Assembly: GCA_965204375.1 (NCBI GenBank)
Contig: OZ241986.1
Coordinates: 5,408,001-5,472,000, forward strand
DNA: 64,000 bases
Source: Candidatus Latescibacterota bacterium
Lineage (GTDB): Bacteria; Latescibacterota; UBA2968
Reading direction: 5' to 3'
Of the stretch, positions 57,441 to 62,852 are shown in pieces. The notes under the pieces are model-generated. The model saw only the letters and a program-made list of their open reading frames with translations, was not told where the DNA came from and did not search any database. The position numbers and the translations under genes are program-made. Positions within the stretch are counted from its first letter, which is position 1. Every line of letters begins with the position of its first letter.

Positions 57441-59021
57441 ATGCCCGAATTGTCCTGGTCTTTTCCGTATGCTTCCCAACGCATGCCGGTTATGGCGTGC
57501 AATGTGGTTGCGACATCTCAACCGCTGGCCGCTCAGGCTGGGTTGCGGATGTTGCTCAAGGGGGGCAATGCCGTAGATGCTGCTCTGGCGACAGCGATGG
57601 CGCTTACGGTTGTTGAACCCAATATGAATGGTATAGGTAGCGATGCGTTTTGCATTTTGTGGGATGGTGAGCAAATGTATGGTCTCAATGCATCGGGGCG
57701 TTCCCCAAAAGCGTGGTCGCCCGAATTGTTTGCAGCCCATGCTCAGATGCCCCAGCGCGGTTGGGATGCCGTGACTGTGCCTGGCTGTGTTTCGGCATGG
57801 GCCGAGGCTTCAGAGCGGTTTGGCGTGTTGCCGTTTGAGGCGTTGTTTGAACCCGCGATTCACTATGCCCGCGATGGTTTTGTTATTTCGCCTATTACCG
57901 GGCATAGTTGGGCACAGGCTGTGTATAATTATGGCGATATGCCCGATTGGATGGCGACTTTTGCACCCGGGGGGCGTGCGCCGAAAATTGGGGAGAAATT
58001 TGTGTGTGAAGCGCAGGCGCGTACGCTTGAGCGGATTGCGGAGACTAAAGGAGAGGCGTTCTATGCGGGTGATCTGGCAGAGAAGATCGCTGCGCATGCA
58101 AAACGCACTGGCGGTGCGATGACAGAAGAAGATCTGGCAGAGCATCGGGCAGATTGGATGGATACGATGACGATGGATTTCGGGGATTATACGCTGCACG
58201 AAATTCCTCCAAATGGTCAGGGTATTGCGGCACTGATTGCACTGGGGATACTGGAGAATTGGGATTTGTCCGGGTATGCCGTTGATTCGGCAGATAGTTT
58301 ACATCTTCAGATTGAGGCGATGAAGTTGGCGTATGCGGATACGCACAGGTATGTGTCTGATCCGGGTACGCGGGATATTGAGTTCGCGCAGTTGCTCGAT
58401 CCGGATTATCTGGCGCAACGCGCGAGGTTGATTGATCTGAAAAGGGCAGGGATGCCCACTTTTGGCATGCCGCGTGGCGATACGGTTTATCTTACGGCGG
58501 CAGATGAAGATGGGATGATGGTTTCGTTTATTCAGTCCAATTATATGGGTTTTGGATCTGGTATTGTGATTCCGGATACGGGTATTAGCATGCAGAACCG
58601 GGGCGCGGGTTTTGTTTTGACGGAGGGCCATCCCAATCGCGTGGATGGGGGCAAGCGACCGTATCATACGATTATTCCGGCGTTTGCGACCCGAGAGGGC
58701 CAACCTGTGATGTCTTTCGGCGTTATGGGCGGGCATATGCAGCCGCAAGGTCACGCGCAGATGATGATTCGGATTTTTGCTTATGGTCAAAATCCACAGG
58801 CTGCGTGCGATGCGCCCCGATGGCAGGTTTTTGGCGGTTTGAGTGTGGGTATTGAGCCAGGTGTGGATGCGGGTGTGCTGGACGATCTTCGCGCCCGCGG
58901 GCACGATATCGAAATTCCGTCGGCTATTGGATATGGTGGGGGTCAACTCATTTATAAATTGGACGATGGCTATTGCGCGGCTTCCGATCCTCGTAAGGAT
59001 GGCCTGGCAGTGGGGTATTGA
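57441..59021 (+). CDS. ggt: gamma-glutamyltransferase family protein
   Basis: ATSQPLAAQAG..GGNAVDAA, PPNGQG, nucleophile TVYL, KRPYHTIIP, GGHMQPQG. Confidence 0.92.
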   Translation: MPELSWSFPYASQRMPVMACNVVATSQPLAAQAGLRMLLKGGNAVDAALATAMALTVVEPNMNGIGSDAFCILWDGEQMYGLNASGRSPKAWSPELFAAHAQMPQRGWDAVTVPGCVSAWAEASERFGVLPFEALFEPAIHYARDGFVISPITGHSWAQAVYNYGDMPDWMATFAPGGRAPKIGEKFVCEAQARTLERIAETKGEAFYAGDLAEKIAAHAKRTGGAMTEEDLAEHRADWMDTMTMDFGDYTLHEIPPNGQGIAALIALGILENWDLSGYAVDSADSLHLQIEAMKLAYADTHRYVSDPGTRDIEFAQLLDPDYLAQRARLIDLKRAGMPTFGMPRGDTVYLTAADEDGMMVSFIQSNYMGFGSGIVIPDTGISMQNRGAGFVLTEGHPNRVDGGKRPYHTIIPAFATREGQPVMSFGVMGGHMQPQGHAQMMIRIFAYGQNPQAACDAPRWQVFGGLSVGIEPGVDAGVLDDLRARGHDIEIPSAIGYGGGQLIYKLDDGYCAASDPRKDGLAVGY

Positions 59022-59025
59022 AAAC

Positions 59026-59068
59026 ACTGTCAGAATCAGGATTTTCAGGATGAAAGGATGAGCAGGAT
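59026..59068. repeat. AGGAT-core short tandem element; inverted relative at 61691-61733
   Basis: actgtcagaatcaggattttcaggatgaaaggatgagcaggat vs revcomp actgtctgaatcaggatttacaggattataggatttacaggat. Confidence 0.65.
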
Positions 59069-59124
59069 ACCCCCAATCCCCTTAGACCAGGAGTCAGGTT
59101 CGACATCAAATAAATGGAATTCCA

Positions 59125-59859
59125 ATGAATAAACGCAAAGATACAGCCTGGCAGGCGCGGGATCTGGCGCAGAAATATCTGAAAAATATTCGGCAGGCAA
59201 TTCCGTTGTCCGATGAGCAGATTGCCGTTATGTGCCGGGTGATCAATGCGGATGGTCACAGGGTCGATACTGTGCTGGACCTGGGGTGTGGAGATGGCAT
59301 ACTCGGGGCTGCGGTTATTGAATATCATCCGGAGGCGCGCGGCGTGTTTGTAGATTTTTCTGAGGCTATGATTGAGGCTGCGCGGAAACGGTTTGGGGGA
59401 ACGGCTTCACAGCATCGTTTTGTTATTGGGGATTATGCGACATCCGATTGGCTCAGTCTGATTATAGATGACGCGCCGTATGATGCGATTGTGTCGGGTT
59501 TTTCAATTCATCACCAGAGCGATGAGCGCAAACGCGAGGTTTATGGCGAGATTTTTGATCTGCTATCGCCCAATGGCGTGTTTGTCAATGTCGAGCATGT
59601 TCGCTCTCCGTCGAAGTGGGTTGAGTCGCGTTTTGCAGATCGCTTTATTGATGCGCTTTACGATTCTGTCACGCGGAGAGACCCGAACGCATCTCGCGAT
59701 GAAATCGCGCGGGCTTATTATTATCGCGATGACAAACAGGCGAATATTCTCGCGTCTGTTGAAGATCAATGCGAATGGCTCAGAGCCATTGGGTTTTCAG
59801 ATGTAGATTGTTATTTCAAGCTGTTTGAACTCGCTGTTTTTGGCGGGAGAAAAGTTTAA
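59125..59859 (+). CDS. class I SAM-dependent methyltransferase
   Basis: VLDLGCGDG, VDFSEAM, YDAIVSGFSIHH, L.PNGVFVN. Confidence 0.9.
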   Translation: MNKRKDTAWQARDLAQKYLKNIRQAIPLSDEQIAVMCRVINADGHRVDTVLDLGCGDGILGAAVIEYHPEARGVFVDFSEAMIEAARKRFGGTASQHRFVIGDYATSDWLSLIIDDAPYDAIVSGFSIHHQSDERKREVYGEIFDLLSPNGVFVNVEHVRSPSKWVESRFADRFIDALYDSVTRRDPNASRDEIARAYYYRDDKQANILASVEDQCEWLRAIGFSDVDCYFKLFELAVFGGRKV

Positions 59860-59865
59860 AAAAGC

Positions 59866-59928
59866 ACGAATCAACGGAACGGGGTACAACTGGCCGTCTC
59901 TCAGGCCAGTTCATCAACGAATCAACGA
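59866..59928 (+). repeat. ~60-bp hairpin element flanked by ACGAATCA octamers
   Basis: Hairpin AACTGGCC-N8-GGCCAGTT; inverted copy at 61781-61843. Confidence 0.8.
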
Positions 59929-59955
59929 AAATGTAGTATTTACCGGGTGAATATC

Positions 59956-60045
59956 ATGTACATACACTATTTCCAAATCGCCCAATTCATTGGCAATAAT
60001 AATGACGATAATAATCCGATCCGGCGACGGGCTGGACCGGCATAG
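59956..60045 (+). CDS. Asn/Asp-rich leader peptide (MYIHYFQIAQFIGNNNDDNNPIRRRAGPA)
   Basis: Manual translation; seven consecutive Asn/Asp codons at 59995-60015; upstream of terminator and aspS. Confidence 0.82.
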   Translation: MYIHYFQIAQFIGNNNDDNNPIRRRAGPA

Positions 60046-60112
60046 GTCGTCTTGTGCCAGCATGTAGAGTAAAGTGCCCGTTGTCAAAAAAATGTGACAA
60101 CGGGCTTTTTTT
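60023..60112 (+). promoter_or_regulatory. aspS attenuator (antiterminator and terminator)
   Basis: Terminator GCCCGTTGTCA/TGACAACGGGC + T7; GGCGACGGGC (60023-32) pairs with GCCCGTTGTC (10 bp, 2 GU). Confidence 0.82.
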
Positions 60113-60140
60113 GTGCCTGAAATTCAAAAAGGAGTCTGTC

Positions 60141-61448
60141 ATGAAATACATCGCAATATCTGAACTGTCCAAATACATCGGCCAAACCGTTACGCTTCAC
60201 GGATGGGTGCATGCCCTGCGCGACCAGAAGCATGTCCAGTTTCTCATTTTGAGAAATCGCACGGGAAGTGTACAGGTTGTTCACGAAAAGACAGGGGCGT
60301 TGGCAGAGCGGGTTTCTGCTCTCACGCGAGAATCGGCGGTGACTATAAGCGGATGTGTTGTAGAAAATTCAGGTGTTCGTCTGGGTGGTGTAGAGATTCA
60401 GCTTGAGGAACTGCGTGTTGTCAATGTAGCTGAATCTCCTTTACCCCTGGATCCGTTTTCCGAGAGTGCATCGGGTATCGACCATAGGCTGGATTGGCGG
60501 CATCTCGATCTTCGCGCTCCGCGCAATCGGTTGATTTTTGAGATACAGACCACTGTTGAAATAGCGATGCGCGAGTACTGGATGCAGAATCATTTTGTCG
60601 AGATCCACTCTCCCAAACTGATGGGTACAGCCAGTGAGTCGGGGGCTGAGTTGTTCGCGCTGCCGTATTTCAATTCCACAGCCTATTTGGCGCAATCGCC
60701 CCAGTTTTACAAACAGATGGCAATGGCGTCCGGTTTTGATCGCGTGTTTGAGATTGCGCCGGTTTTTCGCGCCGATCCCTCATTTACTTCGCGCCACACG
60801 ACAGAGTTTACCAGTGTGGATGTCGAGATCGCCTGGATTGATGGTCACGAGGATGTGATGGCATTTGAAGAAGCGTGGCTCCAGTATGTTATTCAAGTAG
60901 TGCGAGAAAGACACGGTGACGCTATTGCTGAAAATTACGGCGTTGAACTCACGGTGCCAGTGCTGCCTTTTCCGCGCGTCACGATGGCCGAGGCATTGAA
61001 GGTGTTGTCTGAACAGGGCCACGCGCCAGAGCGAGAAGGCGACCTCGATCCAAAGGGCGAGCGTTTGCTCGGTGAATATATTCGCGAAACCCGGGGATGC
61101 GATTATGTCTTTGTGATAGACTATCCAGTATCTGTGCGGCCATTTTACCACATGCGTCATCCAGAATATCCAGATTTGACCAGGAGTTTTGACCTGCTCT
61201 ATCGCGGTGTGGAAATTACCACAGGGGCGCAACGCGAACACCGTCCCGATGTTCTGAGGACTCAGGCAAGAGAGAAAGGGCTGGATTTAGAGGTTATCCA
61301 GTTTTATCTCGATTTTTTTAAGTACGGATGTCCTCCGCACGGGGGATTTGGTTTTGGCCTGTCGCGCCTGCTTATGGTTATGCTCGGGTTGTCCAATGTG
61401 CGCGAGACGACTTTTTTGTCCCGCACACCCAATAGGTTGCATCCATGA
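60141..61448 (+). CDS. aspS: aspartate--tRNA(Asn) ligase, archaeal-type non-discriminating AspRS
   Basis: 435 aa, no GAD domain; GWVH..RD, YLAQSPQFYKQ, FRAD....RH..EF, SFDL....EITTGAQR, PPHGGFG.GL.R. Confidence 0.9.
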   Translation: MKYIAISELSKYIGQTVTLHGWVHALRDQKHVQFLILRNRTGSVQVVHEKTGALAERVSALTRESAVTISGCVVENSGVRLGGVEIQLEELRVVNVAESPLPLDPFSESASGIDHRLDWRHLDLRAPRNRLIFEIQTTVEIAMREYWMQNHFVEIHSPKLMGTASESGAELFALPYFNSTAYLAQSPQFYKQMAMASGFDRVFEIAPVFRADPSFTSRHTTEFTSVDVEIAWIDGHEDVMAFEEAWLQYVIQVVRERHGDAIAENYGVELTVPVLPFPRVTMAEALKVLSEQGHAPEREGDLDPKGERLLGEYIRETRGCDYVFVIDYPVSVRPFYHMRHPEYPDLTRSFDLLYRGVEITTGAQREHRPDVLRTQAREKGLDLEVIQFYLDFFKYGCPPHGGFGFGLSRLLMVMLGLSNVRETTFLSRTPNRLHP

Positions 61449-61459
61449 TATTGTGGTTT

Positions 61460-61547
61460 GTAGGGGCGACCCCCTGTGGTCGCCCGCTGACTGCTGCCCG
61501 CAGTCTCCGTGCCTTCGTCATCGCGGCATGCTTTAAGCCGCGATCCA
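61460..61547. repeat. GTAG REP variant plus GTCATCGCGGC element
   Basis: GTAGGGGCGACC-N5-GGTCGCCC (61460-85) and GTCATCGCGGC..GCCGCGATCCA (61517-47). Confidence 0.8.
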
Positions 61548-61780
61548 GGAGGTTTTTGCTGACCAATATAATTTTAATGTTGCGGTACAACGACATATAG
61601 AGTTTTTTGTGATCGCGCCTTTTACTCTGTTCATCCCTGCTTACACCCGCAGGGACATGTCTGTGGTTGCTTTTATTGCTTTTGATTTTTATCCTGTAAA
61701 TCCTATAATCCTGTAAATCCTGATTCAGACAGTTTTTTGCCGTTTCATCTGTGGCTGCATTTTGGGGGGGCGGAGCGGGG

Positions 61781-61843
61781 TTCGTTGATGAACTGGCCTG
61801 AGAGGCGGCCAGTTGTACACCGTTCCGTCTATTCGTTGATTCG
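61781..61843 (-). repeat. inverted copy of the 59866-59928 element
   Basis: 48-nt core matches with 2 mismatches. Confidence 0.8.
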
Positions 61844-61856
61844 CCAAGGAGATCTC

Positions 61857-62852
61857 ATGCGTCAATACGATGTGTATGGGCTGGGCAATGCGCTGGTGGA
61901 TATTCAGTTTCGGGTCGATCCGTCGTTTTTTGAGGCGATGGAGATTGACAAGGGTGTGATGACGCTGATTGACGGAGACCGCCAGCGCGCGTTGATCGAT
62001 GCTTTGGGCGGGAAAGAGATGGCGCGTTCGTCGGGCGGTTCGGCAGCCAATACGATGATCGCGCTGGCCAATTGTGGTGGGAGGGGTTATTACGGGTGTA
62101 AGGTGGCTGAGGATGCAGATGGCGAGTTTTATCTTAGCGATCTCAATACTGCGGGGGTGGCGTGTAATCCATCACATCGCGGGCAAGGGGTTACGGGCAA
62201 GTGTCTGGTGATGATTACGGAGGATGCGGATCGCACGATGAATACATTTTTGGGGATTACGAGTACGTTTGGTGTGGCGCAGGTTGAGGATGCTGTGATT
62301 GCCGACAGCCAATTTATTTATATCGAGGGCTATCTAATTGCGGCAGACGATGGCTTTGAAGCGGCACAGGCGGCGCAAAAGGTGGCGCAGACGCACGGTA
62401 CAAAGGTCGCGCTTACCCTGAGTGATCCGTCTATTGTGGCTGCTTTTAAGGATAGGATGGCTGCGCTGGTGGATGCAGGCGTGGATATGCTGTTTTGCAA
62501 TGAAGATGAGGGTAGGATATTTACTGGTGCTGAGACGACAGAAGATGCTTTTGATGCGTTGCGACAACGAGTGGGCGGTTTGGCTTTGACGTATGGTGCT
62601 GAGGGTGCTCGGATTTGCGACGGTGGTGATGTGTTTCACGCGCCGGGTTTTGTGGTAGATGCTGTGGATACCAATGGCGCGGGCGACTCATTTGCCGGGG
62701 CGTATTTGTTTGCTGTGACCCGGGGGTATGACACGGCTCAGGCTGCGAGGCTCGCAACCTATGTTTCCTCGCGCGTTGTCGCCAAATACGGTCCGCGTTT
62801 TGAAAGGAAAATGAGTGGGACAGAGATCAACCGGATTTTGAAAATGCGTTAA
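61857..62852 (+). CDS. PfkB-family adenosine kinase-like protein
   Basis: YDVYGLGNALVD, SGGSAANT, DADRTMNTFLG, DTNGAGDSFAG. Confidence 0.9.
   Translation: MRQYDVYGLGNALVDIQFRVDPSFFEAMEIDKGVMTLIDGDRQRALIDALGGKEMARSSGGSAANTMIALANCGGRGYYGCKVAEDADGEFYLSDLNTAGVACNPSHRGQGVTGKCLVMITEDADRTMNTFLGITSTFGVAQVEDAVIADSQFIYIEGYLIAADDGFEAAQAAQKVAQTHGTKVALTLSDPSIVAAFKDRMAALVDAGVDMLFCNEDEGRIFTGAETTEDAFDALRQRVGGLALTYGAEGARICDGGDVFHAPGFVVDAVDTNGAGDSFAGAYLFAVTRGYDTAQAARLATYVSSRVVAKYGPRFERKMSGTEINRILKMR

Follow-up and report, generated by a model that had tools for sequence, protein, structure and literature searches.

The described systems closest to the element reported here are the leader-peptide attenuators trpL, hisL, leuL, thrL, ilvL and pheL, together with pheM, whose action on pheST provides a precedent for an aminoacyl-tRNA synthetase (aaRS) under the control of a leader peptide. 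Arrest peptides that sense a small molecule and control transcription termination, such as TnaC and SpeFL, are a second relevant group, and in Firmicutes, aaRS genes are usually regulated by T-box leaders. Against this background, we analyzed a locus in a 64,000-nucleotide stretch of DNA from a Candidatus Latescibacterota bacterium (GenBank assembly GCA_965204375.1, contig OZ241986.1, positions 5,408,001 to 5,472,000 of the forward strand; hereinafter the window, in whose numbering coordinates are given), where a short upstream open reading frame (uORF) rich in Asn and Asp codons (N/D codons) and an intrinsic terminator precede aspS2, a gene for a second, archaeal-type aspartyl-tRNA synthetase (AspRS2). 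The locus shares with the trp, his and pheM attenuators a uORF of cognate codons, an intrinsic terminator and an antiterminator that uses the 5′ arm of that terminator, and differs from them in its Asn/Asp specificity, in its target and in the conservation of its peptide end as amino acids. We consider a ribosome-mediated transcription attenuator to be the very probable core of this element. A preliminary description, made from the sequence alone, had proposed such an attenuator; missing from it was the most unusual feature of the leader, an invariant peptide end, RRAGP. As a full explanation we favor, with modest confidence, an attenuator read mainly through its Asn codons and secondarily through its Asp codons, with a ribosome parked at RRAGP.

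The leader open reading frame, on the forward strand like the other features described here, occupies 59956–60045 and comprises 29 codons followed by TAG, with the predicted product MYIHYFQIAQFIGNNNDDNNPIRRRAGPA (an open-reading-frame search has it begin at an in-frame GTG at 59947). Codons 14 to 20 (N14–N20, 59995–60015) read AAT AAT AAT GAC GAT AAT AAT and form the putative stall site for a ribosome short of Asn-tRNA or Asp-tRNA. The intrinsic terminator (60076–60112) consists of a perfect 11-bp stem (60076–60086/60095–60105), an 8-nt loop and seven T residues (60106–60112). The 5′ strand of the antiterminator (60023–60032) lies just 3′ of the control codons, and in constrained folds it pairs with 60077–60086 of the terminator arm as a 10-bp helix. 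We could thus confirm in the sequence every coordinate previously proposed for the reading frame, the N/D codons, the terminator with its T-run and the antiterminator strand. Runs of at least six N/D codons occur just three times in the six frames of this 6.34-Mb genome (12.7 million codons), and since runs of seven are expected from composition only about 0.09 times per genome, the run is not a composition effect. Among 10 terminator-like sites in 59000–62500 (shuffles, 3.8 ± 1.8), the terminator hairpin ranks first in strength, and the intergenic RNA as a whole (59860–60145) folds with z = −3.1, none of 200 shuffles folding as well. As the T-run is separated from the aspS2 ATG by only 28 nt, the aspS2 mRNA must begin upstream and pass through the terminator.

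We recovered AspRS2 in 26 of 168 genomes of the phylum (E ≤ 1e-100), all of them in three families of one class. An N/D-rich uORF and a terminator stand ahead of aspS2 in 25 of these 26 genomes, and the leader ends in RRAGP in 23 (hereinafter the 23 leaders); two genomes have tandem leaders with a degenerate end, and one has none. The persistence of the uORF, tract, terminator and antiterminator in relatives, on which the preliminary description had staked its proposal, is therefore observed. In a first set, all 17 complete upstream regions contained an RRAGP-ending uORF (14 from the genus of this bacterium and three from a second family), and in a further set six of nine contained a similar leader; RRAGP is invariant across the 23 and was found in G088, G086 and G040 as well. 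Both degenerate cases belong to one genus (g3; L174 and L175), where the second of two tandem N/D-rich leaders ends in RRWRPP or RRRRHP. In one genome of this genus (G022) aspS2 is frameshifted and lacks a piece, in-frame stops were reported in both genomes, and the degenerate motif may go with a decaying gene. The one genome devoid of the leader (G079) has aspS2 abutting the preceding gene. Tandem attenuators were also seen in a further genome (L186 of G036); at all three loci the first N/D-rich uORF (e.g., MLDNNRNNNDRNETPERGV followed by a stop) has its own terminator and lies ahead of the second leader.

A covariance model of the leader gave 25 full-length matches of at least 85 bits in 151 genomes, among them NNNDDNNPNRRRAGPA and NNNDDNNPNQRRAGPA from genus g9, each ended by a stop; the genome studied here has a single full-length match, and its leader is unique outside its repeat portion. 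Leader and terminator still accompany aspS2 where the gene upstream is an unrelated one (L028, L034, L176 and L038–L040), including the one locus (L176) that a stricter pattern recovered from metagenome contigs, which has a different upstream gene and an AspRS2 79% identical to the one described here. A pattern scan of genomes, which yielded at least 80 loci and is not a survey of all bacteria, returned among the 80 loci listed three with both N/D context and a downstream AspRS2, all from Latescibacterota; we rejected the other 77 as chance matches in GC-rich genomes or within real proteins. No N/D-rich window was found in any of the seven regions upstream of asnB (four genomes) and of asnS, gatB and aspS1 (this genome). 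In addition, one of the 25 model matches is an orphan leader (L181; G012:C19:1800-4300) whose uORF and terminator are intact and whose aspS2 is deleted to its last ~25 nt.

The alignment of these leaders points to constraint at several levels. In 22 aligned sequences, 98.3% of the cells in the terminator helix are paired, with four pairs changed on both sides (slid controls 29–57%), and 92.5% of those in the antiterminator helix, with three such double-sided changes (slid controls 28–57%); the check for covarying stems that had been suggested thus came out positive for both helices. The terminator 5′ arm is complementary to the I-R-R-R-A codons in all 23 leaders (10–15 bp, −19 to −29 kcal/mol), the antiterminator duplex ending 2–7 nt short of the last nucleotide of the Pro codon and the terminator arm starting 26–35 nt past that codon. 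The nine codons ahead of the conserved P contain four to eight N plus D in every lineage, and they remain N/D-rich even though they vary at nine, seven and eight of their nine first, second and third positions, respectively. Order and content of the tract differ by lineage (e.g., NNNDDNN, HNNDEHN, NPNDDNN and NPNENPH), and its spacing to RAGP is constant. As judged from these tracts, Asn codons predominate over the tract in all lineages, which fits a role of AspRS2 in asparagine supply.

The conserved peptide end comprises codons P21–P28 (PIRRRAGP, 60016–60039) and carries an arrest-type RAGP core. Across the 23 leaders (18 distinct cores), the codons for P-I-(R or Q)-R-R-A-G-P vary at one of eight first positions, one of eight second positions and all eight third positions, whereas immediately after the conserved Pro all of 26 nucleotide columns vary; the stop codon comes one to four codons past the Pro and, in L040, far beyond it. 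Since variable sites in these last eight conserved codons are distributed 1, 1 and 8 by codon position, the pattern argues indirectly that the uORF is translated, and by the same measure its peptide end is under selection as amino acids, through synonymous changes. Within the genus, leader codons 14–30 are 98.6% identical at the nucleotide level; because their third positions are 95.5% identical, as against 82% for the third positions of aspS2, the leader RNA and the leader peptide both seem to be constrained.

Passages of PMC12992588 and PMC10987492 identify RAGP as the C-terminal arrest core of SecM and the core of YwcI, both of which halt the ribosome with Gly in the P site and Pro-tRNA in the A site. 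They report that a Pro-to-Ala change in Bacillus subtilis YwcI abolishes the arrest, and indicate that RAGP is arrest-competent in the contexts of ApdP and ApcA too. The present leader resembles SecM and YwcI, as portrayed there, in having an R-A-G-P core near the C-terminus of a small uORF product and in that conservation ends at the Pro; the RAPP/RGPP arrest peptides ApdA, ApdP and ApcA, as treated in parts of PMC10951299 and PMC10951233, have a core of similar class. It departs from the SecM/YwcI class in that the downstream gene encodes an aaRS, with no sec or yidC gene, in that the 29-residue peptide has no signal or membrane segment, by eye showing no long hydrophobic stretch, and in its N-terminal context, which is N/D-rich and then PIRR in place of the FxxxxWIxxxxGI of SecM. 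The proposed output is likewise different, being formation of an intrinsic terminator and not exposure of a ribosome-binding site. The aspS2 leader is accordingly not in the Sec/YidC-monitoring class, although it may work like the arrest core of that class. In this leader, nature may provide an example of an arrest-type motif that acts in transcription termination and not in the monitoring of secretion. By analogy with these peptides, we infer a ribosome arrest at RAGP, and we give a role for this motif in parking the ribosome an even or barely better chance. As a separate observation, RAPP and RGPP (seven occurrences each) turn up less often in the long reading frames of this genome than any other of the 12 permutations of the same residues, in agreement with the avoidance reported in a passage of PMC12992588. 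Two leader-like RAGP frames elsewhere in the genome (near genome positions 493612 and 192026) were discarded as off-frame readings of real genes.

Switch folds were computed for a transcript ended at 60088, just past the terminator 5′ arm, and for equivalent ends in all 23 leaders. With the ribosomal A site on N14–D18, the window sequence folds into the 10-bp antiterminator (−27.3 kcal/mol vs −19.1 kcal/mol for the terminator), and with the A site on N20, Pro28 or the stop codon the ribosome lies over the antiterminator strand. The antiterminator is predicted in 20–21 of the 23 leaders when the ribosome is on the N/D codons and in none when it is at RAGP. With no ribosome, it is predicted in nine, namely two of the 14 from the genus and seven of the nine from other lineages. 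In the window, a protector (anti-antiterminator) hairpin (59988–60060; −28.5 kcal/mol) is predicted to sequester the antiterminator strand in the ribosome-free transcript; this hairpin is predicted to hold in 12 of the 14 genus genomes and in two of the nine leaders of other lineages. Hence, of the trp/his/pheM geometry initially proposed, the terminator, antiterminator and control codons stand, and the likeness to trp and his in having a 1:2 protector is predicted mostly within the genus and is not general. In most lineages outside the genus, these folds predict that termination is allowed only by a ribosome on the RRAGP codons, and, nothing else being predicted to allow it there, the conserved arrest-type motif would have a job.

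The gene content of the genome bears on what such a switch would supply. The aspS2 gene (60141–61448, its start being at 60141 and not 60142) encodes a protein of 435 residues named aspartate--tRNA(Asn) ligase, and its profile matches (NF003483, 507 bits, cut-off 353; TIGR00458, 409.5 bits, cut-off 368.4) bear out its earlier identification as a short archaeal-type AspRS. The nearest solved structures are the AspRS chains 3nel, 1b8a and 1n9w, the entry title of the last being that of a non-discriminating archaeal-type AspRS 2. We take the anticodon-domain determinants of non-discrimination to be a His where the discriminating enzyme has a Trp, plus a Pro in the L1 loop, our literature search for these determinants having found no paper. 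His24 of AspRS2 falls opposite a His in 1n9w and 1wyd and opposite a Trp in 1b8a, and so matches the first determinant. The preliminary description had cast AspRS2 as the one enzyme feeding both tRNA-Asp and tRNA-Asn, and had suggested a check for the absence of asnS and the presence of gatCAB. While gatB is indeed present (572.5 bits), so are asnS (491.8 bits, over its cut-off) and a bacterial-type aspS (763.6 bits), and AspRS2 is thus not the sole such enzyme. Profile searches of the genome gave no match for asnA and a best asnB match of 111.9 bits, under the cut-off of 267.1. The single tRNA-Asn gene has U1-A72, and tRNA-Asp has G1-C72; U1-A72 is a feature needed by bacterial GatCAB according to a passage of PMC4206432.

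Because asnS, bacterial aspS and gatB are present, and neither asnA nor asnB reaches its cut-off, AspRS2 is probably an inducible accessory enzyme through which tRNA-dependent asparagine synthesis is entered, in the manner of Deinococcus and Thermus. Parts of PMC2330236 and PMC4206432 describe AsnRS, a bacterial AspRS, an archaeal-type AspRS2 and GatCAB in D. radiodurans and T. thermophilus, and the likeness to these, as far as those parts describe them, extends to AsnRS, two AspRS, GatCAB, a U1-A72 tRNA-Asn and the absence of AsnA/AsnB. The differences are that the present bacterium belongs to another phylum and that the gene is patchy even within its genus, where it occurs in 13 of 20 relatives. 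An asnB gene exceeds the cut-off in four of the 21 genomes of the genus (g1), three of which (G011, G017 and G019) are among the seven without AspRS2 and one of which (G001) has it; one single-contig genome that is 99% complete (G020) has neither. This distribution hints that AspRS2 and asnB are alternative routes, partly complementary, among kin that are not independent.

Starting from the anatomy, conservation, covariation, peptide-level selection and gene content observed above, we infer hungry-codon stalling, arrest at RAGP and a regulatory outcome of the following kind. Transcription would begin upstream of the leader and, in most relatives, apparently continues from the methyltransferase gene that precedes it. 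With Asn-tRNA(Asn) and Asp-tRNA(Asp) plentiful, the ribosome would clear codons 14–20 and stall or dwell at RRAGP, the proposed parked state having G27 (60034–60036) in the P site and P28 (60037–60039) in the A site; it would thereby mask 60023–60032, the terminator (60076–60112) would fold, transcription would end and aspS2 would be off. The parked ribosome would in this way be the anti-antiterminator, or reinforce one. With charged tRNA(Asn) or tRNA(Asp) in short supply, the ribosome would instead stall on the N/D codons, leaving 60023–60032 free to pair with the terminator 5′ arm, and RNA polymerase would read into aspS2. AspRS2 would then make Asp-tRNA(Asn), and its conversion by GatCAB to Asn-tRNA(Asn) would restore the supply.

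So construed, the leader resembles T-boxes in sensing uncharged tRNA and in choosing between terminator and antiterminator upstream of an aaRS gene. It differs from them in its length of ~185 nt, in sensing through translation and not by direct tRNA binding, and in having no Rfam match: a search of the region at E ≤ 10 gave four matches, all far under their gathering scores, and no T-box, leader or riboswitch family. With TnaC and SpeFL, it would share the principle that a ribosome stalled on the leader decides if transcription is to end. In those systems, however, the stall blocks Rho, turns the operon on and responds to a free ligand, whereas here the parked ribosome would favor an intrinsic terminator and keep the gene off, tRNA charging being read further upstream.

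The regulation of the AspRS2/GatCAB route is essentially undescribed, and if the proposed mechanism is right, the enzyme would be made only when Asn-tRNA runs short; Asn and Asp would join the amino acids read by attenuators, and AspRS2 would be the second kind of aaRS, after pheST, to be so regulated. Only tentatively do we put forward the wider claim that a hungry-codon sensor and a SecM-type RAGP arrest are here joined, with the arrested ribosome enforcing intrinsic termination; this would make the leader the first amino-acid attenuator with an arrest peptide as its off-lock, the first described cis-regulator of tRNA-dependent asparagine synthesis, and one of a phylum-wide set of aaRS leaders (aspS2, aspS, thrS and lysS). 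Our literature search, which did not extend to the uORF tables in the supplements of PMC12992588 and PMC10987492, turned up no account of an Asn/Asp leader, of aspS2 being regulated in cis or of an amino-acid attenuator that contains an arrest-type motif, in line with the earlier impression that none had been described for aspS2. The terms tRNA synthetase, attenuation and terminator occur zero times in the main text of PMC12992588. No cis-regulatory leader was found described for aspS2 of Deinococcus or Thermus, the loci of which were not examined.

Several points weigh against the proposed account. The conservation counts rest on about ten independent lineages. Most RAPP-like motifs of ordinary proteins arrest inefficiently, and RAGP alone is often insufficient, according to passages of PMC12992588 and PMC10987492. 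RAGP occurs 18 times in the long reading frames of this genome (stop-to-stop frames of at least 250 residues, whole genome), where its 24 permutations span 12–38; its rarity being only mild, we set it aside as support for arrest. A homologous leader on the bacterial-type aspS of another family (f4; see below) ends in RARWRWP-stop, without RAGP, and within the genus the protector hairpin could render an arrest dispensable. Equilibrium folds of the full-length leader give the terminator in every ribosome state, with no discrimination, and the switch therefore rests on kinetic reasoning from truncated transcripts. As for expression, the Shine-Dalgarno sequence of the leader ATG is weak or absent in the genus, no promoter for the leader was identified at the locus, and the transcript data, which come from four RNA runs as contigs with ends at differing places, are mute on 3′ ends and levels. 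Lastly, Leu81 of AspRS2 stands opposite the loop Pro of 1n9w, so that only one of the two determinants of non-discrimination is present.

Among the alternatives, the one that survives best, though we regard it as unlikely, is a plain hungry-codon attenuator in the manner of trp and his, in which there is no arrest and RRAGP is kept for a mild pause or by the combined constraints of RNA and coding. The protector, which by itself keeps the antiterminator from forming in 12 of the 14 genus genomes, would suffice for such an attenuator, and a ribosome that has the stop codon in the A site masks the antiterminator strand too; the different peptide end of the f4 homologue and the mild avoidance of RAGP in the proteome also suit it. 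RNA constraint alone, however, fails to explain eight varying third positions under constant amino acids. Moreover, the f4 leader does the same RNA job with A-R-W-R-W codons, which means that pairing does not dictate RRAGP. Where the stop falls past the Pro is not fixed, L040 having none nearby, and in seven of the nine leaders outside the genus the only thing predicted to keep the antiterminator from forming is a ribosome positioned on RRAGP.

An improbable variant makes the arrest itself the sensor, the N/D peptide in the tunnel rendering the RAGP stall dependent on a ligand or factor, such as free Asn or Asp, or Asp incorporated at Asn codons when amidation lags. It can draw on the precedents of TnaC and SpeFL, on the selection of the peptide end as amino acids and on the constant spacing between tract and RAGP. 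Conversely, the tract varies in order and content in a manner that fits selection for codon content and not for a binding surface, the second tandem leader of genus g3 is N/D-rich without RAGP, and the geometry alone gives a complete hungry-codon switch.

We attach less weight still to a leader that senses the decoding of NAY codons in general, e.g., the queuosine state of tRNA-Asn, -Asp, -His and -Tyr, in place of charging. NAY codons specify all four of these amino acids and are read by queuosine-tRNAs, and His codons, once a Tyr codon, are mixed into the tracts of L038, L167, L168, L170 and L040 (as in DHHNNHHD, NHNHNDHN and PYNDNNNHN). The regulated gene is nevertheless specific to Asp/Asn, the His codons are one base off Asn codons and may be drift, and no His codon occurs in the tracts of the genus and of several further lineages. 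Least of all do we credit a mere methyltransferase terminator with a chance reading frame: the start of the uORF 7 nt past the methyltransferase stop in most genus genomes and an RNA-library contig linking that gene to the leader (a two-gene contig being no proof of a single transcript) would suit it, but leader and terminator follow aspS2 behind unrelated genes, the T-run leaves just 28 nt before the aspS2 ATG, an N/D run is hardly expected by chance, and the frame has coding-type conservation.

The attenuator proposed for aspS2 has relatives on other genes of the phylum. In family f4, which lacks AspRS2, weaker full-length matches to the covariance model led to a homologous 30-codon leader ahead of the bacterial-type aspS (807 and 772 bits on NF001750). 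At these loci (L187–L189, L191 and L193–L197), the N/D leader NNDDNNPAIRARWRWP-stop is accompanied by a terminator and an antiterminator, and the peptide ends in Pro-stop. The attenuator initially assigned to aspS2 is therefore found on that gene without being confined to it. In genus g25, the leader is MTFRHKHTARAFAHNNDDNNPAIRARWRWP followed by a stop, with close variants in eight genomes, and the form of genus g30 is more distant; the antiterminator strand, located in the last six codons, pairs at −20 kcal/mol in all but one of the eight g25 leaders, at −22.7 kcal/mol in the remaining one and at −13.8 kcal/mol in g30. All four g25 genomes checked have asnS and gatB and no asnB match; three of the four carry a verified leader, and the fourth (G130) a weak, uninspected model match. 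A passage of PMC4206432 describes the gene arrangement seen in g25 for Bdellovibrio, and in g25 aspS may literally be the one enzyme feeding both tRNAs.

Apart from these, the model search led to uORFs with terminators whose codon bias suits the gene behind them, namely a T-rich uORF ahead of thrS (L199 and L190), a K/N-rich leader ending in RWWGWP-stop ahead of lysS (L192), and a T/K-rich leader ahead of asd (L185). From their sequences, such cases suggest that leader-peptide control of aaRS genes is common in the phylum. The leaders on aspS, thrS, lysS and asd further suggest that this uncultured phylum uses translation-coupled attenuation where Firmicutes use T-boxes. The asd leader of the present genome (~1523112–1523560, outside the window) looks by eye like a lysine riboswitch with a terminator.

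As to the surroundings of the locus, aspS2 is preceded by a GGAG ribosome-binding site (60131–60134) 6 nt before its ATG; its upstream neighbor is a class-I methyltransferase gene (59125–59859), and its downstream neighbor encodes a PfkB-family sugar kinase. One RNA-library contig spans 59950–60079, and another links the 3′ end of the methyltransferase gene to the leader up to 60059. Between the methyltransferase gene and the leader lies a 56-nt repeat (59866–59921) with 43 BLAST matches in the genome, the locus itself included; relatives lack this upstream copy, and their leader begins 7 nt past the methyltransferase stop. An inverted copy of the repeat, 93% complementary, lies behind aspS2 (61781–61836), and a second inverted pair of 49 nt lies further out (59021–59069/61690–61738), so that the leader–aspS2 unit is bracketed by inverted repeats. 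In three genomes of the genus (L030, L034 and L036, of G004, G015 and G018), an insertion of ~75 nt separates the terminator from the aspS2 ribosome-binding site.

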